Below are positions 8,369 through 24,779 of a stretch of 64,000 nucleotides of DNA, in pieces. The stretch covers positions 2,208,001-2,272,000 of the forward strand of contig CBDHHL010000032.1 of NCBI GenBank assembly GCA_965263355.1, read 5' to 3'. Each line of letters begins with the position of its first letter. Position 1 is the stretch's first letter. Position numbers and translations under genes: made by a program. The notes beneath the pieces were generated by a model. It made no database searches and had not been told where the DNA came from. It saw nothing but the letters and a program-made list of their open reading frames with translations. The stretch is from Leptolyngbyaceae cyanobacterium (GTDB taxonomy: Bacteria > Cyanobacteriota > Cyanobacteriia > Phormidesmidales > Phormidesmidaceae).

Positions 8369-9496
8369 ATGGGGCGTAAATCACTCACAATCGAAGCCAT
8401 CAATGCCAGGTTGGAAACAGCTCAGCTGGGGCTAAAGATCTACCAGCGTGGCGAAAAGCTATCCATTCGGGGTACGTTGCCCCCCAAACCCAGTAGTAAG
8501 CGTACGAAACCCCATCAGCAGCTGATTAGTCTGGGGGTGTATGCCAATCCAGCGGGTCTGGAGTATGCCGAATCAGAAGCCTTTCGCCTGGGAGGGTTAC
8601 TGGCCCAAAAGCGTTTTAGCTGGGAGGTCGTTAGCCCAGACCCAGACCAGATTCCAGCTCAGGATCCTGAGGAAAGCTGCCAGGTGTGGATAGAACGCTT
8701 TCGGCAAGACTGGTTAAAGCATCAGGATGGCGATGAGGCAGTCGTTGAGCTGAAATGGCGCGAGCAGTTTTGGTATCCCGCCTTTAAGTGGCTATCCCCT
8801 AACGCCGCCCTCACGCCCTATTTATTAGAAAGTGTTGTGCAGCGGTGGAAGCCTAACAGTCGCAGTCGTCAAATTGCCTGCCAAAAATTGCAACGACTGG
8901 CAGACTTTGCCAACGTTAAATCAGATATTAAGGCTTACCAGGGCGACTATAGCCTCAGTAATGTAGAGCGGATTATTCCAGACGATCCTGATATTGTTAC
9001 GGCCATTGACAGTATGAAAAATAAGTCCTGGCAGTGGGTTGCCGGGATGATGGCCACCTATAATTTGAGGGACCATGAAGCCTTTCTGTGTGAGGTGGAG
9101 TGGCGAAAATACGACGGTGAACAATGGCTGGTGGCCTTGGTCCCCGATGCGACTAAGACGGGCAAGCGAGAAACATTTCCCTTACCCCCAGAATGGGTTG
9201 AACGGTGGCAATTGGACAATGTTCGTCGGCCTGACGTCACAGCGCGTATTAACAAGGATTATGGAGATCGCACCTCCACCGCATTTCAACGGGCCAAAAT
9301 GCCCTTCCCGCCCTATAGTTTGCGCCATGCCTGGAATATTCGCGCGGCTCTGTGGTTAGAACTGCCTACTGCAGTAGCGTCTCAGTTTATGGGCCACAAT
9401 CCTAATGTGAATCTGGGCACTTATCAAAAGCATATTTCTAAAGCGCGGGCGGCCCAAGCCTATTTTGAAGCGTTAAGACGCAAGCAGCGGGGATGA
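8369..9496 (+). CDS. Tyrosine recombinase / phage-type integrase
   Basis: YNLRDHE (catalytic R), TKTG, YSLRHAW, MGH...Y; 130 bp downstream of the tRNA. Confidence 0.9.
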   Translation: MGRKSLTIEAINARLETAQLGLKIYQRGEKLSIRGTLPPKPSSKRTKPHQQLISLGVYANPAGLEYAESEAFRLGGLLAQKRFSWEVVSPDPDQIPAQDPEESCQVWIERFRQDWLKHQDGDEAVVELKWREQFWYPAFKWLSPNAALTPYLLESVVQRWKPNSRSRQIACQKLQRLADFANVKSDIKAYQGDYSLSNVERIIPDDPDIVTAIDSMKNKSWQWVAGMMATYNLRDHEAFLCEVEWRKYDGEQWLVALVPDATKTGKRETFPLPPEWVERWQLDNVRRPDVTARINKDYGDRTSTAFQRAKMPFPPYSLRHAWNIRAALWLELPTAVASQFMGHNPNVNLGTYQKHISKARAAQAYFEALRRKQRG

Positions 9497-9524
9497 TCCT
9501 TCAGCTTCGCTCAGGATGTGGTGA

Positions 9525-9863
9525 TTAAGCACTGCGTAGGGGGGTGCGTTTTGCAGCTATGGTGCGATCGCGTGCCTGACATTTTTCAATATTCGCATAC
9601 CAATCAGGACGGCTAGACTGGGGAGAACGACGGTCTATGATCTCCTTGCCTGCTCGATAGTGACCAGACCTAACTTTATATAAACAGGCATCATAATTTT
9701 TGTAGCCCAACAGTTTCCACGCATCGCTGAGCTTGACCAGCTTTGCCGGTGTTTCCAGCTCAGAATTGAGGCGATTATGCAACACCTGTAGTTGTTGCTC
9801 TATATCATCCAGCCGGTGATGGAGTTGCCCAAACAATTCCTGTAGCAATTCTCCAGTATCCAT
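9525..9863 (-). CDS. Small coiled-coil plus HTH-like protein, candidate excisionase/RDF
   Basis: Probable start MDTGELL; VKLSDAWKLLGYKNYDACLYKVRSG resembles a winged HTH; convergent with the integrase. Confidence 0.5.
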   Translation of the reverse strand: MDTGELLQELFGQLHHRLDDIEQQLQVLHNRLNSELETPAKLVKLSDAWKLLGYKNYDACLYKVRSGHYRAGKEIIDRRSPQSSRPDWYANIEKCQARDRTIAAKRTPLRSA

Positions 9864-10374
9864 ATCAAATCCCCAACGGTAATAACAGGGTAAGAAACGG
9901 GGAGTATGCCAAACATGCTCAATATGCTTGGTGAACCTTGATGCCATTAATCTTAGGACACACCTATCAAGCAGAGCTGTACACATGCTGATTAGTTAAA
10001 CTTTCTTAACTCAACTGACTCCTGGACATCTTGCTTAAACCGTCTAGTTACAGAAGCTTCGATTCTATTAAATCCTTTTTCTATTAGCTTTGAGCGAAAA
10101 AATATTGAAATTACGCATTATGTCAGCATTGCTTCTGAGTGCTGAGCTGCGATTGAGGCGAAATTATCAAAAGTCAGCCCATGCCCCGCAGATAAGAGCC
10201 TTCCTCCCATAACGATCACAGGTAAAGTCTGCCACCAGATGGACGGTCTAAATACGTAGGCTAGTTGGCTGATTTTGAAAAAAATTACATCGAATCAATC
10301 TAACTGCGTTGTTTTTAGGATGAAATGGGCGAAGTGCCCATGGATACCTGTAGTGACGCTGTGAAATAAAGACC

Positions 10375-14228: not shown

Positions 14229-15869
14229 GACCGTCCCAGGAAATTAAAGAAAACTTAGGGAATGAGGGGCTCGAACTTCGTTAGGTTTTGAGTATGGATA
14301 AAGAGATCGAAATTGCTGGTATCAAGGTTCCGCAATCAGACTGGGAGGCAACACCGCCAAGCATCCAGTCATTAGTAACGGCATTGGTAGAACGTCTAAA
14401 CTGTCAGAGTGAGCAAATAGCCCAGCTAAACGAGCGTTTAAGCCAGCTGGAAGAACGGCAAAATCAGACCTCGAAGAATTCATCGAAACCACCCTCGACA
14501 GATGGGTTTGGCCAAGGAGTAAAGGCGACAAAGAAGGCGAAAAAACGAAGGAAGTCGAGTTCATCAGAGTCTCCTCCTCGTCAAGCCCGTACGCTCAAGG
14601 CGAGTGAAGAGTGTGAGCGGAGTTATGACGTGAAGCCAACCATGTGCAAGGACTGCGGAGCTGAGTTGAGTGGAGATGATCGCCATCCACATCGGCATCA
14701 AGAGATAGAGTTGCCACCGATTGAACCGTTGGTGATTGAATACCGTCTACATCAGCTGAGTTGTTCGGTCTGTGGAGAGATGACCCGAGCAGGCTTACCG
14801 TTAGGCGTTTCCCCCTCCGGATATGGAGAGCGTTTGAGTGCCATCGTGAGTCTGTTGAGTGGACCGTATCGTCAAAGCTATCGTCAGGTTTGTCGACTGA
14901 TGGATGAGGTGTTTGAGGTGCGATTGTCCCGTGGCAGTATTGGTCGTTTGCGCGCAGAGGTGAGTGCCGCACTCGCAGCACCCGTGTCAGAGGCAAAAAC
15001 GTATGTCCAGTCTCAGCCGAGGGTCCATAGTGATGAGACGGGATTTCCCCAAGGGAATAGTGATGGCAAGAACCCCAAGAAAACCAAAGGGTGGTTGTGG
15101 GTGTTAGTGACCCCGTTAGTGAGTTTTTTTGAGGTGGTGTTTAGTCGGTCTCAGGCAACGGCTAAAGCGTTGATTGGTGACGCTTATCCAGGGATTGTCA
15201 TCTCTGACCGCTGCAGTGCTTACACCTGGATTGACCCCGACCACTGGCAAACGTGTTGGGCACATTTGAAACGCGATTTTACGGCCATGGCTGAGCGCTC
15301 AGGGGCTTCCCAAGATATTGGTGATGCCTTGCTACGTCGTCAGAAGCGGTTGTTTCGTTGGTGGCATCAAGTCAGAGATGGCACCTTGTCACGTGAGCAG
15401 TTTATCACCCAGGTCAATCGCTTACGGGATGGCTTTAAAGGGGTACTCGAAGAAGCGGCATCACTACCGATTAAACCAAAGGAAAAGACGCCGTTGGCGA
15501 AAACCGTTAGGACCTGTCGCCGGTTACTGAAGGTTGAACCGGCCCTATGGACGTTCGTCTATAAAACTGATGTGGAGCCGACTAATAATTCGGCTGAGCG
15601 TGCCTTGCGACCCGCTGTGATTTGGCGACGTACTAGTTTTGGGTCTCAATCGCAAGGCGGCAGTCAGTTTGTAACTCGAATGTTAACGGTCACAACCTCT
15701 CTAAAGGCTCAGGGAAGACATATTCTCGATTTCCTCACACAGGTCTTATTAGCCAAACGCAAGGGAGACCTTGTTCCTTCGCTCCTTCCTCAATCAGACT
15801 TGCCGGTCTCAACATCCTCTAACGATAGAATATTGCCTGCTGCTTAAAAGACTAATATGAGGGACACTC
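14229..15869 (+). mobile_element. IS66-family element
   Basis: Imperfect TIRs GACCGTCCC (14229) and GGGACACTC (ending 15869) coincide with the truncation points of both neighbouring genes. Confidence 0.8.
14288..15847 (+). CDS. IS66 transposase (TnpC-like)
   Basis: NSSKPPSTD, zinc-finger CxxC motifs, HSDET, ISDR, CWAHLKRDF, PTNNSAERALR. Confidence 0.93.
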   Translation: MSMDKEIEIAGIKVPQSDWEATPPSIQSLVTALVERLNCQSEQIAQLNERLSQLEERQNQTSKNSSKPPSTDGFGQGVKATKKAKKRRKSSSSESPPRQARTLKASEECERSYDVKPTMCKDCGAELSGDDRHPHRHQEIELPPIEPLVIEYRLHQLSCSVCGEMTRAGLPLGVSPSGYGERLSAIVSLLSGPYRQSYRQVCRLMDEVFEVRLSRGSIGRLRAEVSAALAAPVSEAKTYVQSQPRVHSDETGFPQGNSDGKNPKKTKGWLWVLVTPLVSFFEVVFSRSQATAKALIGDAYPGIVISDRCSAYTWIDPDHWQTCWAHLKRDFTAMAERSGASQDIGDALLRRQKRLFRWWHQVRDGTLSREQFITQVNRLRDGFKGVLEEAASLPIKPKEKTPLAKTVRTCRRLLKVEPALWTFVYKTDVEPTNNSAERALRPAVIWRRTSFGSQSQGGSQFVTRMLTVTTSLKAQGRHILDFLTQVLLAKRKGDLVPSLLPQSDLPVSTSSNDRILPAA

Positions 15870-16810
15870 AAAAAAGACTGAGCGCAATTAAAGCGAGTTC
15901 GGTCTTCACCAAAGGCCGCTAACAATCGTGGCGCTAAATGAGGCCCAGCCCCTGGCAATGCCTTAAAAAGTTCTGCATCCGGCAGCGATTCAAATAACGA
16001 GGCAATTTGACGCTCAAACACAATCAATTGCGACAAGACTACTTTCAATAAAGCGACTAAGCCTTGCATTAACGCTTGGGCTGGAATGGTGATAGCGTCG
16101 TCTCGCGTCAAGGGTGGCCCAGCGTCTTGAATTTGCTGAGTTCGCCGTTGAATCGTGGTTTTGCGAATGATGTGATGGCTACGAAAGAAGTCTCTCAAGA
16201 CATCAGCTGTAGCAGCTTGAGCCTCTTGTAAATTGGGAAACTGTTCAAGGAATTCACAAAACGCAATGGTGTCTTTATCTTCAAACCAGTCGAGCACTTG
16301 AGGAAAATAGGATTTGAGTGCGGCGGTGATCCGATTCGTCAGCCGGACCTTCTCACCCACTAACATGCGACGGGACTCAACCCATTGTCTCAATGCACGA
16401 TGCTTCGGACAACCTGATGTCCAGATATCAAGTTTTTCACCATGTTTTTGCATCAATTCGACGATCAGTTTGGCATCGATGGGATCCGATTTGGCCCGCG
16501 AGGGCTGAAACGCTTTGCGATAGTTCGCGACCGTTCGAGGATTAACGGGCACCAGCACCAAATTCTCGTATTGACATAGGCCATAAAGGAGGGGGCCGCG
16601 TTTCTGCTCCAACCCAACCAGCAACTTGGACTCTCCATAGGTTTTTCGTAAGCGATTGACCCAATCTGCAATGGATTGGGGCTTGGATTGAATCGTGCAA
16701 TGCTCCCAGGTTTCGTTCTGGCAGTCATAGAGCGCAATATCATGTTTACGATCTGCCCAGTCAATCCCGATATAAGCCGCATATGCTGTTGGACTTTGAT
16801 TGAGTTTCAT
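15870..16810 (-). pseudogene. IS110-family recombinase, C-terminus removed by IS66
   Basis: IGIDWADRKHD, AKSDPIDA, LPGAGPHLAPRL; the frame enters IS66 sequence before the catalytic-Ser region. Confidence 0.88.
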
Positions 16811-16844
16811 TGTGCTAAATTGAGGGTGTTTTTGTTTGACGGAG

Positions 16845-17127
16845 AGTCTGCCACCAGTCGCCTTGCGAAGTGATTATGGAAAGGGTTATTTCCCTGCTCC
16901 CTGAGGATTCGTTGGGCAGCGATTGGACTGGCTTGAAGGGCGATTCGATATGTTAGTAGTCATCTTCTGACTGGCGCTGCATAGTCGTCCCCCCAAGCTA
17001 GCAGATTCTCTCCTTTCTTGACTCTATGCTTTTTTCCAGATTTAGAACATCTAAAGGGAGGAGCGATACGATATGTTAGTAGACATCTATACTGTCGTCC
17101 AATGCATAGTCGTCTCCTCCCGTTTTT
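16845..17127 (-). ncRNA. Candidate IS110 bridge RNA region with three stem/internal-loop/hairpin modules
   Basis: Non-coding region 5' of the IS110 gene. Manually folded modules at about 16851-16926, 16931-16998 and 17056-17121; the 16931-16998 stem needs G-U pairs available only on the minus strand. Confidence 0.55.
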
Positions 17128-17142
17128 CTATGCTCGTCCCCC

Positions 17143-17227
17143 CATAAACGCCCATGCACACCGACCGCCGAAGGTGGATCGGTGTGATGCAAAGGTTATC
17201 TGCAGCGGGTGATGGGCAGCGTTATGC
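17143..17227 (+). repeat. attC-like site 1 (R'' box altered at the putative IS110 end)
   Basis: CATAAACGCCCATGCAC...GGGTGATGGGCAGC-GTTATGC; imperfect palindrome ending in a GTT core, followed 21 bp later by an ORF. Confidence 0.7.
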
Positions 17228-17248
17228 GGCAGTACTCAAAGGTGCTTT

Positions 17249-17626
17249 ATGAGGAACAGGACCGTTTTAATCTCTCTATTCATCTTTTCTGGATCCTATG
17301 CATTAGGGAGCGTAACAAAACAGATCCGTCCACATATTGATTCACCATTGATACACGACGCAATTTTGGGTTGGTTTCCAAGTTTTATCTACGTATTCGG
17401 AATGCTTTATGTCATTCCTATCTATAAGCATCTCCTTAACCAAAAAGAAACTAAGACTAATTTTGCAAAGCTCTTTATGTGGGGAACATGTGGAGCTTGC
17501 TCATACGAGTTCTTACAGCTATTCATACCGTCACGAACATTCAGCCTCTTGGATCGGATTGCGACTATTACAGGTGGCATTGCCTCATGGTATTTGTTCG
17601 TGTGGCTGAGTCTTGACAAAAGTTAA
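17249..17626 (+). CDS. Small membrane protein, VanZ-like cassette gene
   Basis: Four hydrophobic segments; YEFLQLFIPSRTFSLLD resembles the VanZ E-xxQ...R...D motif. Confidence 0.6.
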   Translation: MRNRTVLISLFIFSGSYALGSVTKQIRPHIDSPLIHDAILGWFPSFIYVFGMLYVIPIYKHLLNQKETKTNFAKLFMWGTCGACSYEFLQLFIPSRTFSLLDRIATITGGIASWYLFVWLSLDKS

Positions 17627-17802
17627 CGAAACTCTCGCTTTACCATACAATTGAGTTTCAGGCAGAATATATGTACTATTAAATTAGTAATGGTCAGCTC
17701 AAGCTCTTGTAAATATAGCTTAAAGAAGCCTTAGAAACCTTTATGGGATATACGTTCTTTATAATAAGAGCTGTAGATTAAAAGCCTATTGATATCTATA
17801 CT

Positions 17803-18039
17803 ATGCTAGCCACTAGTGAATCACTCAAACAGGATATTGAAAAGCTCACTGACGAGCAGCTGCAGCAGGTTGCTGAGTTTATCGCTTTCCTTAGGTTTCA
17901 AGAAAAACGGAAACGTATAACTCTTGATCCAGTCCTTTTAGCTCCCCTTGCAACTGAATTTGCAGAGGAAGATCGTGAACTTGCAGAATCAGGCATAGGC
18001 GACTATTCGGATATGCTTGCTCAAGAAGATCAGCTATGA
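17803..18039 (+). CDS. Antitoxin (DUF2281-like)
   Basis: IEKLTDEQLQQVAEFIAFL with acidic C-terminus; 4-bp overlap with the toxin gene. Confidence 0.7.
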   Translation: MLATSESLKQDIEKLTDEQLQQVAEFIAFLRFQEKRKRITLDPVLLAPLATEFAEEDRELAESGIGDYSDMLAQEDQL

Positions 18040-18389
18040 CCAAACAACTTCATCGTGGAGAAGTCTGGCTAGCAAACCTCGATCCTACCCAAGGTTCTGA
18101 GCAATCAGGTATTCGCCCTGTCATAATTTTTCAGAATGATATTGTTTCAAAGTTTTCTACAACAACGATTACTATTCCTCTGACAACAAATAAGCGTCGT
18201 GCCTCTTTGCCAATTTGTGTGATGATAAACCGAGGAGATGGTGGGTTACGACAAGATTCTGTTGCGCTTTGTTTTCAGCTTCGAGTACTGGATAAAACGC
18301 GATTAATTAAGCGTTTAGGACAACTCAACCCACAGACAATTGCTGTGCTGGAAGAAGTCGTTTTAGTAACCTTAGGATACGATTTATGA
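18036..18389 (+). CDS. mazF: PemK/MazF-family toxin
   Basis: RGEVWLANLDPTQGSEQSGIRPVIIFQND, IPLTT, DSVALCFQLRVLDKTRL. Confidence 0.92.
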   Translation: MTKQLHRGEVWLANLDPTQGSEQSGIRPVIIFQNDIVSKFSTTTITIPLTTNKRRASLPICVMINRGDGGLRQDSVALCFQLRVLDKTRLIKRLGQLNPQTIAVLEEVVLVTLGYDL

Positions 18390-18410
18390 AAGTGTTAACT
18401 TGCTGGGCTA

Positions 18411-18768
18411 GCATAACCCTACGCAGGAGCGGACGGACAGAAAATTCTAAATACTTGATAACATACTGACCGCCGCTCAGCTTCAACGACTATGAAGCCG
18501 TGAACGTGTCAAGTGGGTTTCGGCATATTTTTTCAGGGAGTCTCTCATTTTTTATCCACATCAATCTCTCATCTTGTTGTTGACTAAGATGCTTTGTCTT
18601 TGTTATTCAGAATGTCTTTTTGATTGAGAATCAATGAGGCAAAGTGGATTTAACCGACTGTCCGAGGTGTCAATGCTTTTGAACTTATGTTCTACTGCAT
18701 TGCCTCAAGAGTTTTTGCAAAGGTGCATGGCTTATAACTCCTACGGAGACGCTACGCGAACGTTAGGG
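18411..18768 (+). repeat. attC-like site 2, split by insertions
   Basis: GCATAAC-CCTACGCAGGAGCGGACGG...GACCGCCGCTCAGCTTCAAC (to 18487); the R' box GTTAGGG is displaced to 18762-18768. Confidence 0.75.
18488..18740. mobile_element. MITE / IS remnant inside attC 2
   Basis: 253 bp AT-rich segment with no ORF; imperfect 18-bp IRs GACTATGAAGCCGTGAAC and GTGCATGGCTTATAACTC. Confidence 0.55.
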
Positions 18769-18854
18769 CAACCTTGTTGCAGATTACGTGAAGCTTCAAG
18801 CTCATGCTAGAGTCTCACTTTGCTCTCTCCATTCTCTCTTCTAAATTTTGTTCT

Positions 18855-19908
18855 CTATGGTGTTGGCTGAGCTAACTCTGGATTCCACGGCTGGTTGTGT
18901 AACAACATCGCCCAACATCGCACCAACAACTTCCGGGCAACGGCTACAATCGCTGTTTTCTTGCGGGTCTTCTGTCCTCCACTAATGCGGGCATAAGTGG
19001 CTGCCGCCCATTCGTTGTGACGTAACATCAGCCAGGACACTTCCACTAATGCCGTTCGGAGTAATCGAGGGCCTCGTTTAGTAATCTTGCCCAGGCGATT
19101 AGTTTGACCAGACTGATGCTGCTGAGGAATTAATCCAGCATAGGCAGACACTTGTCGCGAATTCTTAAATCGCTTTGGGTCATCCAAACAGGTGACAATT
19201 ACCTCGGCGGTTTTACGGCCAACCCCAGGAATCGTCTGCAATAGTTGGATACGCTCCTCCTGCTTGGCAAGTAGTTCTAATTTCCGTTCAATCGTTGCCA
19301 GGTGTTCCCATAGTTGGTCCAGCATCGTTAATTCTAAATCTAATTCCCCACGCCATAGATTGGTCTCATTGCACTCCACGAGTACTCGTCGGTGTTGGCT
19401 TAATTCGTCAATCCCCTGAACGCTCCAGGCTCGGTGGCCTGATGGCATTTTCACACCTTGTTGATCAAACAACGCGCGAATCGCATATCGCATTTTGAAC
19501 TCGATTGATCCGCCAAACCACCACTTTACGATATTTCACTAAGTGCCGATATTGGCGACTCTCTGGGGCAGGCACGTACACAGGGTTAATCTGCTCCAAA
19601 GCAGCCAGTTTTGCTAATTTCAAGGCATCGTCTTTATCGGTTTTGCGTTTGACGTTTTTCCACCGTCAGGCTTCCTGACTGGGATCGGCCACCAATACTC
19701 GATAGTCTTCGGCAACGCAGAGATCGTTTACCCAGCCGGTAATTGAACACGTTTCCACTACCACCAAGTCTGGTTGAGTACGATGTAATATTTCTTTGAA
19801 TTCCCGTCGGTACGTCTTGAACGTGTCAAATTCAGTCGCGTTACTCTCCGTGTCCAGCAGACACGATACACAGTTGAATTTGCCCAGGTCGATCGCTAGA
19901 ATCTTCAT
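18855..19908 (-). pseudogene. IS110-family recombinase pseudogene
   Basis: MKILAIDLGKF, KRKTDKDDA, TIPGVG, YAGLIPQQHQSG, GKITKRGPRLLR, AVARKL. In-frame TGA at 19666-19668 and a 7-bp duplication (ATGCGAT x2) near 19490 causing a frameshift. Confidence 0.9.
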
Positions 19909-20043
19909 AACGTTTCTCCAAGTGTCAGAGGGGATAGCTGGATGTCTATAGCCTCTCACGGCTTGCATAGATTCTTTAGACAGAGTCGTCTGCGGGCGAG
20001 AGAGTCGAGAAGCGCCCAGTAAGTATGGCGACAGCAGAAAGGG

Positions 20044-22968: not shown

Positions 22969-23054
22969 GCCTAAACCCTATGCAGGAGCGGACGGAATTT
23001 ACAATCCAGGCATCAATATCAAAATATTGGCCGCCGCTCAGCTCCACGTTCGGC
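22969..23054 (+). repeat. attC-like site 4 (slightly degenerate)
   Basis: GCCTAAAC-CCTATGCAGGAGCGGACGG...GCCGCCGCTCAGCTCCAC-GTTCGGC; a further lone ATCTAAC at 22920. Confidence 0.75.
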
Positions 23055-23602
23055 TGCAATCGAGAAAAGAGACTCTGGAGGAGCCAGATCGGCGGTGGAG
23101 CAATCGCCCGTTGGTCAGTTGAGCGTAATTCAGATATCCCAACTCGCGCTAGGTCCCATAAAGTTGTTGTCGATAGCGTCAGCATACATCTTGTCAACGC
23201 CTGGCCAAGCCTCAAAAGTCCCATTAGCTATCGGCGGTCGATTGCCTCAATATTACGATCGCCAATCGCATTAACGACGAGTGCGCTCGGTGGGTGTGCG
23301 GGGACTGCCAATTGGCTAAGGTTGCATTTTGTCAACGGTTGGTCAGTGGCCAAGGTCCCAATGGATATCGGTGGATCGCCTGGGGTAAATGGTTTTGAGC
23401 GGTTGGTGAATGGGATGGGTTCGAGTTGCGATCGGGGTATCCCACCCATAGATTTCCCCCCGAACCCTCCGTTGGTGAAGACTGAGGTAGAACTATCAGC
23501 TAAACTTGAAACGTGCTGTGCAGCCACAGAAATTCTCTGAGCAGCAAGCGCTGTGTTGAATATTGCGCAAAGATGCTCGATTTCCTTTATGTTCACCACT
23601 GA

Positions 23603-24018: not shown

Positions 24019-24341
24019 CGCATTACAGACAAGTCATTAATGGCGTGATTAGCAATCATGCTAAGTATCGGCCTAGTCATGGTCAAATTGAAACATTGCC
24101 ACTTTGTGATGTCCACAACGATAACTATTTACTTCTTGATCTAGGTTGGGATAAGACAGGTCGTGTTCATTCAGTCGCTATTCATATCCGGTTAAAAGCA
24201 GACAAAATTTGGATTGAATGGGATGGTACTGAGACTGGCATTACTGATGAACTCTTGGTAGCAGGTATTGCTAAAGAAGATATTGTCTTAGGTTTCTATC
24301 GACCTGAAAGGCGAGAAATTACGGGCTTTGCTGTTGCTTAA
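24006..24341 (+). CDS. xisI: XisI-family protein
   Basis: MDKLTHYR, GWDKTGRVH, KIWIEWDGTETGI, GIAKEDIVLGF. Confidence 0.92.
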   Translation: MDKLTHYRQVINGVISNHAKYRPSHGQIETLPLCDVHNDNYLLLDLGWDKTGRVHSVAIHIRLKADKIWIEWDGTETGITDELLVAGIAKEDIVLGFYRPERREITGFAVA

Positions 24342-24376
24342 TCGTTTTGGTGACCAGCACCATTTTCATACTTGTC

Positions 24377-24450
24377 GCCTAACCCTACGCAGGAGCGGAC
24401 GGAGGGTAAAATTTAGGTGGCGATGCAAAGTTTCTGACCGCCGCTCAGCT
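24377..24450 (+). repeat. attC-like site 5 (R' box deleted)
   Basis: GCCTAAC-CCTACGCAGGAGCGGACGG...GACCGCCGCTCAGCT joined directly to GCAATCGAG. Confidence 0.75.
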
Positions 24451-24594
24451 GCAATCGAGAAAAGAAATGTTGTCGAGGGTCAGATCGGTGGTGGTGCAAT
24501 CGCCCGTTGCTCAGTTGCGCGTAGTACAGGTATCCCAAAACATGACAGGTCCCACAAAGTTACCGTCGATAGCGTCAGCATACATCTTGTCAAC

Positions 24595-24779
24595 TATGAC
24601 ATTTCTGTCCGTCGGCTCACAGGTTTGCCGCTGGCTTCCCTTAGACCCCTCCTCGCGGAGACGCCCTTGCCTTAAGCTAGTAGTTGCTGTCACTCGGCTC
24701 CTATAACTTTCGAGCATTTGGACTTGATCCTCCTACAGGGGACTTTCACCCCATTAGTTCACGCCCATGCTGGGCGTAC
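24595..24779 (-). mobile_element. 5' remnant (domain I) of a group IIC intron inserted in attC 6
   Basis: Minus strand reads GTACGCCCAGCATGGGCGTGAACTAATGGGGTGAAAGTCCCC...GGCAAGGGCGTCTCCGCGAGGAGGGGTCTAAGGGAAGCC, like class C intron 5' ends; no RT ORF or domain V seen. Confidence 0.75.

Follow-up and report, generated by a model that had tools for sequence, protein, structure and literature searches.

The window analysed here, a stretch of 64,000 nucleotides from a Leptolyngbyaceae cyanobacterium, carries on its minus strand a partial IS110 recombinase gene (positions 15866-16810) that matches PF01548 (DEDD_Tnp_IS110) with an E value of 2.6e-27. The first ~314 codons out of ~421-429 are present; their product is 97% identical to P0001, a full-length relative of 429 amino acids, and, without the C-terminal part, scores 113.7 against NF033542. 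The gene is interrupted by an IS66-family element on the plus strand (14233-15865; PF03050, with ends read from the sequence), the break lying at 15865/15866. Because IS66 cuts the gene at codon ~314, the 3' part, which encodes the protein end with the conserved ESGK-motif serine, is gone, and with it the right end of the element. The IS66 insertion shows no target duplication, and it was therefore probably accompanied by an adjacent deletion. Other copies in the same genome are known through contigs of public runs: in DNA contigs from three such runs a second copy runs on beyond the 15866 break, with a depth roughly double that of the flank, and a further insertion site in these contigs has the attC arm TGCATTTG, which is of the A type defined below. 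The public RNA runs, which consist of contigs only and hold 3% of the words, showed no sign of expression.

Upstream of the gene lies the left non-coding end of the element (16811-17146, minus strand), a predicted bridge RNA gene of 336 nucleotides that starts with TATGG; the same left end was found in 69 junctions, and 33 leaders were aligned. An Rfam search of 15500-19000 gave no credible match. The leader abuts a one-base core (17147, minus strand), a T on the element strand that is common to target and donor as read from the junctions and at which empty sites join. The core also begins an attC site without its R'' box (17147-17227, plus strand; E 2.8e-14 with an attC profile built from flanks that include this one), in which we distinguish the spacer AACGC (17147-17151), the L'' box CCATGCAC (17152-17159) and the R' box GTTATGC (17221-17227), all on the plus strand. 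To the right of the element, small plus-strand genes (VanZ-like, a PemK/MazF pair, TIR-Mrr and XisH/XisI) are accompanied by two more attC-like sites, so that this region looks like a cassette array.

The stretch 18411-19970 contains a second attC (R'' GCATAAC at 18411-18417). This site is disrupted, close to its R' end, by a broken minus-strand element of the IS110 family that matches PF02371, contains an internal stop and has the inverted repeat AAGCCGTGA near both ends. The broken element looks like an IS1111-type attC element, so neighbouring attC sites may have been struck at opposite ends by two RNA-guided lineages. The third attC-like site follows XisI (24377-24455); its R'' end is nearly identical to that of the 18411 site, and the R' end is absent. 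Two ORF-like stretches (22980-23540 and 24328-24675) contain a similar translated segment, which suggests that part of the cassette region is duplicated or repeated. Elsewhere in the window, 8369-9986 holds a 375-aa ORF and a convergent 153-aa ORF, which we take to resemble a tyrosine recombinase and an excisionase at an island edge; neither ORF had a Pfam match, nor did the 375-aa ORF match NCBIfam.

Read on the minus strand, the leader contains three modules. Module A (17056-17121), a predicted extra target-binding loop, has the left guide TGCATTGG (17099-17106), defined from the sequence and from the per-position match profile of 50 sites, and the right guide CTAACA, which pairs with the core T and GTTAG and is followed by the two bases TA (17072-17079 together). 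Module B (16931-16998), a predicted target-binding loop in the ancestral position, has the left guide TGCAGCGC (16981-16974) and again the right guide CTAACA (16956-16951). Module C (16851-16926), the predicted donor-binding loop, carries the left guide CTCAGGGA (16905-16898), which matches the right end of intact relatives, and the right guide CCATAA (16879-16874), which pairs with the left end. The original prediction, made from the sequence of the window, had described A and B as near-duplicates whose stems differ yet still pair, and this was borne out: they are 78% identical over 55 nucleotides (E 1e-5 against the whole window), with a local alignment score of 54, whereas none of 2000 shuffles scored above 27, and each folds into a stem with a large internal loop (z -3.1 for A, -2.5 for B; -3.8 for the whole leader). 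The CTATGCA that it had called conserved is indeed present, but is just the first half of the left guide, and it is the differences between A and B immediately after it that are informative. Its layout of three modules also lacked a stem enclosing B and C, whose 5' strand (17000-17013) pairs with 16852-16841 and in which 9 of 10 pairs vary on both sides.

In the consensus of the relatives, B and C lie inside this closing stem and A forms a separate upstream hairpin, with an A-rich linker between them; folds of single-loop relatives have a plain 5' stem-loop where A sits. Covariation in the leader alignment, which had been proposed as a check, supports this structure: 90% of cells are paired, 24 of 47 pairs vary on both sides (including 5 of the 9 outer-stem pairs of B), and the pairing exceeds that of all 500 shuffles and all slid controls, the structure being drawn partly from the same sequences. 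The stems of A are mostly invariant, so that A has little covariation of its own, and its scaffold is 92-96% conserved versus 46-55% for the linkers in the 33 aligned leaders. Likeness is 0.95 between A and other A's and 0.91 between B and other B's, against 0.84 between A and the B of the same element; since A resembles other A's more than its own B, this fits one old duplication of A and B that was kept by selection without homogenisation. A few leaders are disturbed: L022 has a foreign insertion of ~100 bases inside the right guide of A (2620-2720), and a GCTACGC-type repeat occurs within C of L059 and after the right guide of B in L060.

The ends of the element were read from its intact relatives. 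Homologous elements share the left end TATGG(G/A)(G/A)(A/G)GACG, upstream of A, which follows a T at the left junctions. The right end reads TTGAC...CGTC...CTCAGGG-N-CTA, followed by T and by GTTAG or a variant; right junctions are of the form CTA-T-GTTAG, with GTTAG in 21 of 35 and GTTAT in 5 of 35. By inspection, the sub-terminal repeats comprise only GACG(G/A) against (C/T)CGTC, 4-6 bp. In 56 of 63 elements, with protein identities as low as 40%, the 5' guide of C is an exact copy of the right-end motif, and the two change together across four variants (CTCAGGG, CTCAGAG, CTCAGAA and CTCAGAT). The complement of the 3' guide, TTATGG in some elements and TTATAG in others, occurs upstream, likewise in 56 of 63. 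On this co-variation we identify C as the donor-binding loop. Its match to an element end, CCATAA being the reverse complement of the left end TTATGG, had been seen at the outset and stands, but C, first grouped with A and B, is not a third target loop; by itself it folds no better than shuffled sequences (z -0.7), and across 33 relatives both of its guide strands show 93-96% conservation. When the ends are joined, TTGAC-N and TATTAT are spaced by 17 nucleotides in 29 of 34 elements and by 18 in the other 5, as a consensus match only, and the TAT of the left end would become the second half of a -10 box upon circularisation.

The protein itself is that of a bridge recombinase of the IS110 group. 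P0001 has both PF01548 and PF02371 and scores 172.9 against NF033542, above the cut-off of 140; an alignment of 27 of the 120 homologs listed shows D17, E68, D109, D112 and S326 unchanged throughout, and the proteins of relatives mostly have 416-431 residues. The assignment rests on the DEDD and Tnp domains with the serine, a structured left-end RNA, and donor and target guides that track their partners.

In DNA contigs, empty homologous sites join at exactly 17147 with GCATAAC in front, and for this reason we place the insertion one base inside the R'' box of an integron attC, facing against the cassette array. That the leader ends at an attC R'' box had been predicted, and three integron arrays agree, since there the attC sites in the orientation of the element lie on the strand opposite the array. 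Insertion at R' was considered and rejected because integron arrays place the junction at R''. Across the family, an exact TAAC stands 74-82 nucleotides upstream at 43 of 67 left junctions versus 3% by chance, and the hairpin-arm score lies above the 95th percentile at 42 of 67; the sites of L148, L171 and L014 do not resemble a whole attC. A crude attC scan missed the attC sites of the window, and the profile built from flanks found 23 empty attC sites in the loci, several of them beside integron integrase genes. TIGR02249 (integron integrase) scores above its cut-off in 3 of 5 host genomes, the arrays next to the integrase genes contain the same attC family, and in G002 one element copy lies 19.7 kb from intI. 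An open-frame test of cassette direction gave a weak result (6/32 versus 0). The arm of the window attC recurs in empty attC sites of L144, L158 and L161.

On the element strand, the target reads T(G/C)CA, 6-7 variable bases, the core T and GTTAG. The CTAACA right guides of A and B read the core and GTTAG in the same register, and by inspection the two bases that follow them match the donor TA and not the target; they are putative handshake guides. The distance from the left guide match to the core is 7 at 27 sites, 8 at 22 and 6 at 6.

Leaders with two target loops proved to be a feature of a whole clade. The sample comprised 55 genome loci and the best 80 of 246 metagenome matches, with more copies found via the left-end pattern, which gave 79 matches; 10 unrelated ones were dropped and 69 kept. 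Among these left ends, 14 are cut off or interrupted, 48 have two target loops and 7 have one, so that two target loops are present in 48 of the 55 readable leaders (47 recognised by pattern, and L057, with a one-base deletion in A, by profile). In a quick tree of 93 proteins, obtained by a quick search without bootstrap, all two-loop rows fall in one cyanobacterial clade of 40 rows (SH-aLRT 99), whose sister is a 6-row clade with single-loop leaders in all readable members. L003 represents one loss nested within the two-loop clade, and L044, which was not placed, has a single loop and a 5' stem-loop of the sister type. Because the two-loop leaders form one clade with a single-loop sister, we assign A to the element and not to debris; the alternative that homologous elements end near 17030 and that A is left over from a second insertion was tested and does not hold, the shared left end lying upstream of A.

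No leader with more than two target loops was found among those examined, and the term 'mini guide array' in the original prediction thus overstated an otherwise well-supported extra loop. Two loci with three loop matches were rejected as three-loop leaders, each being a full copy and a truncated copy 1 kb away. No self-repeat was found in leaders outside the clade with a test that also missed many known two-loop leaders. The leader had no DNA match among plasmids, where the best protein match (50%) has one target loop by inspection, and none of 14 pattern matches in viral contigs had target loops; the 9 viral matches that passed the first filter and L099 were left out of all counts. Of 401 genomes sampled across the phylum, 2 have the left end. 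Among single-loop relatives, GTT-type right junctions reach down to 43-51% protein identity and into gammaproteobacterial genomes, so attC targeting predates the loop duplication. In the single-loop L020, L023, L024, L078 and L086-L113 the right junction has an extra T (TTGTTA) and the right guide, where read, is TAACAA, the cut being displaced by one base with respect to R''. L110-L135 (40-45% identity) keep the donor-loop logic and, because their right junctions are unlike attC, this lineage has been retargeted.

The left guide of A is mostly TGCAT(T/G)GG and that of B mostly T(G/C)CA(G/A)CG; in each of the 36 guide pairs, 3-7 of the 12 guide positions differ between the two loops, the attC-core guide being common to both. 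Insertion sites fall correspondingly into an A type, with the arm TGCATGGG, and a B type, with TGCAGCGC or TCCAACGC. At 9 of 55 sites B was read from a sister copy within that genome, L001 was left out of the guide-target tests because its junction is degenerate, and the two-loop scoring excluded 6 sites for which B is unknown. Over 54 sites, the mean best match of 7.33 falls to 7.07 when A is kept and B shuffled and to 6.78 when B is kept and A shuffled (p 0.0002 in each case, also with one vote per guide pair); tested singly, A gives p 0.0002 and B p 0.008. All of these p values ignore kinship and are too small, since guide pairs are related by descent. Features that only one loop can supply point the same way: when C at guide position 2 is confined to B, the target has C in 10 of 18 sites versus 2 of 35 otherwise, this C of B occurring mostly in early-branching lineages, and when a T at position 5 could come from A alone, the target has T in 19 of 36 sites versus 0 of 18.

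A mixture of both loops also fits better than either alone. With a 10-nucleotide window fixed beforehand, the likelihood-ratio test statistic against A alone is 8.9 (10.2 with one vote per guide pair) and, with one vote per guide pair, that against B alone is 14.3; the share of A ranged over 0.2-0.7 in 1000 bootstraps and was never 0 or 1. With an 8-nucleotide window, chosen after seeing the 10-nucleotide result, the statistic rises to 18-32. These figures bear on the reading that only B directs recombination and A is a structural or loading element, a substitute for the 5' stem-loop whose scaffold would bind a recombinase dimer and whose guide-like sequence was inherited and is not used. A does lie outside the B/C closing stem, where single-loop relatives carry a plain 5' stem-loop, and the stems of B have more compensatory changes. 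Yet the guide of A predicts targets at least as well as that of B, the B-only model is rejected, and A is clearly favoured at 24 of the 54 sites versus 12 for B (18 being close, with fewer than 2 matches between them), with L164 matching A at 10 of 10; we judge this reading distinctly improbable. Together, the results indicate that both target loops are used, on the strength of sequence correlations.

Single elements with copies at both types of site agree with use of both loops: L026, L041 and L043 (B) with L051 (A), L056 (A) with L057 (B), and L035 (A) with L195 (B). The window site itself matches A at 7 of 8 positions (17158-17151) and B at 5 of 8, so the copy was apparently placed by loop A and later disabled. 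Two loci fit poorly, L045, where neither loop fits (4.5 and 4.5 of 10), and L003, which has a B-type loop only and yet an A-type site (5/10); L003 either lost A once it had inserted or reflects loose targeting. Near its full copy, ~1 kb away on the minus strand, L164 has a ~75-base remnant in an attC that consists of the left end and loop A up to ACATAT, with GTTAG immediately after it, which suggests recombination inside the DNA encoding the target loop, ACATAT resembling the right end. The idea that A and B serve different attC spacer lengths failed, lengths 7/8 being 15/14 for A and 10/6 for B.

A and B might instead act jointly or at different steps, for example one at excision or the old site and the other at the new site, or both on one attC, on its strands or hairpin arms. 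The available part of one report gives a target-loop-only RNA its own role in CazIS110-1 (10.1101/2025.10.25.684509), that of another has a target stem-loop adding specificity in ISPpu10 (10.64898/2026.03.19.712850), attC sites are hairpins, and a guide-to-core distance that varies by one base suits a flexible target. At sites assigned to one loop, however, the other matches the variable positions 5, 6 and 8 at only 12-22%, as for either-or use, and the right guides of A and B pair with one core in an identical register, which makes joint action unlikely in our view.

Insertion sites also differ from attC sites at large. The 8-nucleotide match averages 6.81 at insertion sites versus 5.81 in the pool of empty attC sites (window chosen afterwards), and a match of at least 6/8 with either loop is found at 89% of sites versus 60% of the pool, a small set of 23 sites recovered with a profile that had been built from occupied ones; in this pool 46% reach at least 6/8 with A and 23% with B. 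Were targeting due to the shared right guide, the TGCA and protein recognition of the attC hairpin, with the variable guide bases drifting and matches reflecting shared ancestry of element and host, then the frequent mismatches (the mean best match is 6.8/8), the poor fit of L003 and L045 and the neglect of kinship in the tests would be accounted for. The excess over the empty pool, the presence of both attC classes in host arrays, the conservation of left guides (0.73) above that of the linkers (0.46-0.55) and the joint change of guide and target in single-loop relatives run against it, and we regard it as scarcely credible. Such relatives match their own sites better than shuffled ones (6 elements, p 0.04), and in the sister clade, right junctions reading TTGTTA accompany the right guide TAACAA. 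RNA-guided targeting of attC at R'', as originally proposed, is thus supported by insertion sites that are attC and that track the loop sequences; that the sites might bear no relation to the loops or to attC was tested and is not so. Co-variation of the loops, proposed with it as a check, was seen with donor and target alike.

We consider it likely that A and B are used in an either-or manner that widens the range of usable attC sites, since attC arms vary between cassettes and two differently programmed loops can cover more of them. By analogy with IS621, the excised circle would form a promoter, TTGAC(C/T)-17-TATTAT, that drives the bridge RNA; one recombinase dimer would bind C and the donor junction, and a second would bind A or B. 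The left guide would read ~8 bases of the attC arm and the right guide the core T and GTTAG, and strand exchange at the one-base T core would integrate the element, separating R'' from the rest of the attC. The extra target loop would take up a recombinase dimer for itself and so be able to partner any dimer that carries C. A third loop should need no new protein, because the target and donor loops of one IS621 complex derive from different RNA molecules (PMC11208158) and split loops of IS622 are active (10.1101/2025.05.14.653916); both points, together with the target-loop-only RNA that is the main bound species in CazIS110-1 (10.1101/2025.10.25.684509), according to the accessible portions of these reports, are also why an extra loop could load its own dimer. 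Rather more tentatively, and with somewhat less than even confidence, the leader may be a natural multiplexed guide cassette in which a cut in the A-rich linker would yield free A and a canonical B+C bridge RNA, two interchangeable guides partitioning the attC classes of the host.

As far as the accessible text of the relevant reports goes (PMC11208160, PMC11208158 and 10.1101/2025.05.14.653916), the element resembles IS621 and IS622 (ISCro4) in its DEDD and Tnp recombinase, an RNA in a long left end, a target loop before the donor loop, a 5' guide that reads the bottom strand and a 3' guide that reads the top strand, an unpaired A adjoining the stems and probable handshake bases; the predicted promoter at its joined ends would have the arrangement reported for IS621 (PMC11208158). 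It differs in having two target loops and no plain 5' stem-loop, such as IS621 has (PMC11208160), in the three-way junction that holds B and C, in a one-base core rather than CT, in left guides that end 2-3 bases before the core, and in a protein of 416-429 residues that aligns only weakly to IS621 (E 1e-10, residues 261-404); its target is attC, whereas that of IS621 is REP.

Insertion at a fixed position of attC, a trait of the IS1111-attC group, is found here too. That group is reportedly covered by Tetu and Holmes (2008) and by Post and Hall (2009). All three loops of our element lie upstream of the gene, its order is of the IS110 type with two target modules, and its inverted repeats have 4-6 bp. 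To judge from the part of PMC11187229 available, members of the IS1111-attC group (ISKpn4, ISPst6, ISPa25) likewise make RNA-guided insertions at one end of a cassette attC, whereas their RNA lies downstream of a transposase of 330-350 aa, their single seekRNA target module has the top-strand match first, and their long sub-terminal inverted repeats have 7-17 bp. TIGR-Tas arrays similarly provide several tandem-spacer guide units for one Nop-related protein; here two target units and a donor loop sit in a transposon beside its recombinase, with no regular array. The recombinase scores 31.7 against the TIGR-Tas model NF052498 (cut-off 100). The available text of PMC12045711, on which this comparison draws, calls IS110 bridge RNAs 'a single two-stem unit' and compares a bridge RNA with a pair of fused tigRNAs. 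Expanded IS110 loci with tandem non-coding repeats, in the accessible part of 10.64898/2026.08.14.744561, also place duplicated non-coding DNA next to an IS110 transposase; those repeats had to be at least 95% identical to qualify and are presented as local expansions, whereas A and B are ~80% alike, old, clade-wide and differ in their guides. The words 'TBL' and 'integron' are absent from the text of that report.

A canonical bridge RNA has exactly one target and one donor loop, and this leader departs from that definition. A literature search, covering the main texts of freely available papers, found no bridge RNA with two target loops and no cyanobacterial attC element of the IS110 group, and such an RNA is not described in the accessible parts of PMC13604230, PMC3971601, bioRxiv 2024.06.21.599552 and bioRxiv 2026.10.21.760802. 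The architecture may lie unremarked in large model sets, such as the supplements of Durrant 2024 or of bioRxiv 2026.10.21.760802 (86 bridge-RNA models).

The element adds to the mobile elements that home to attC an IS110-group lineage separate from the IS1111-attC group. By splitting R'' from the rest of the attC, its insertion should freeze cassettes in place. Intact relatives exist in cultured strains (L002, L017 and L026), and the two-loop leader offers a natural scaffold for multiplexed bridge recombination. If the multiplexed cassette proves true, it would rank as the first multi-target bridge system found in nature and would stand midway from bridge RNAs to TIGR-like arrays. For the family itself, a clade with two differently programmed target loops would represent a way for an RNA-guided element to handle a variable family of targets.
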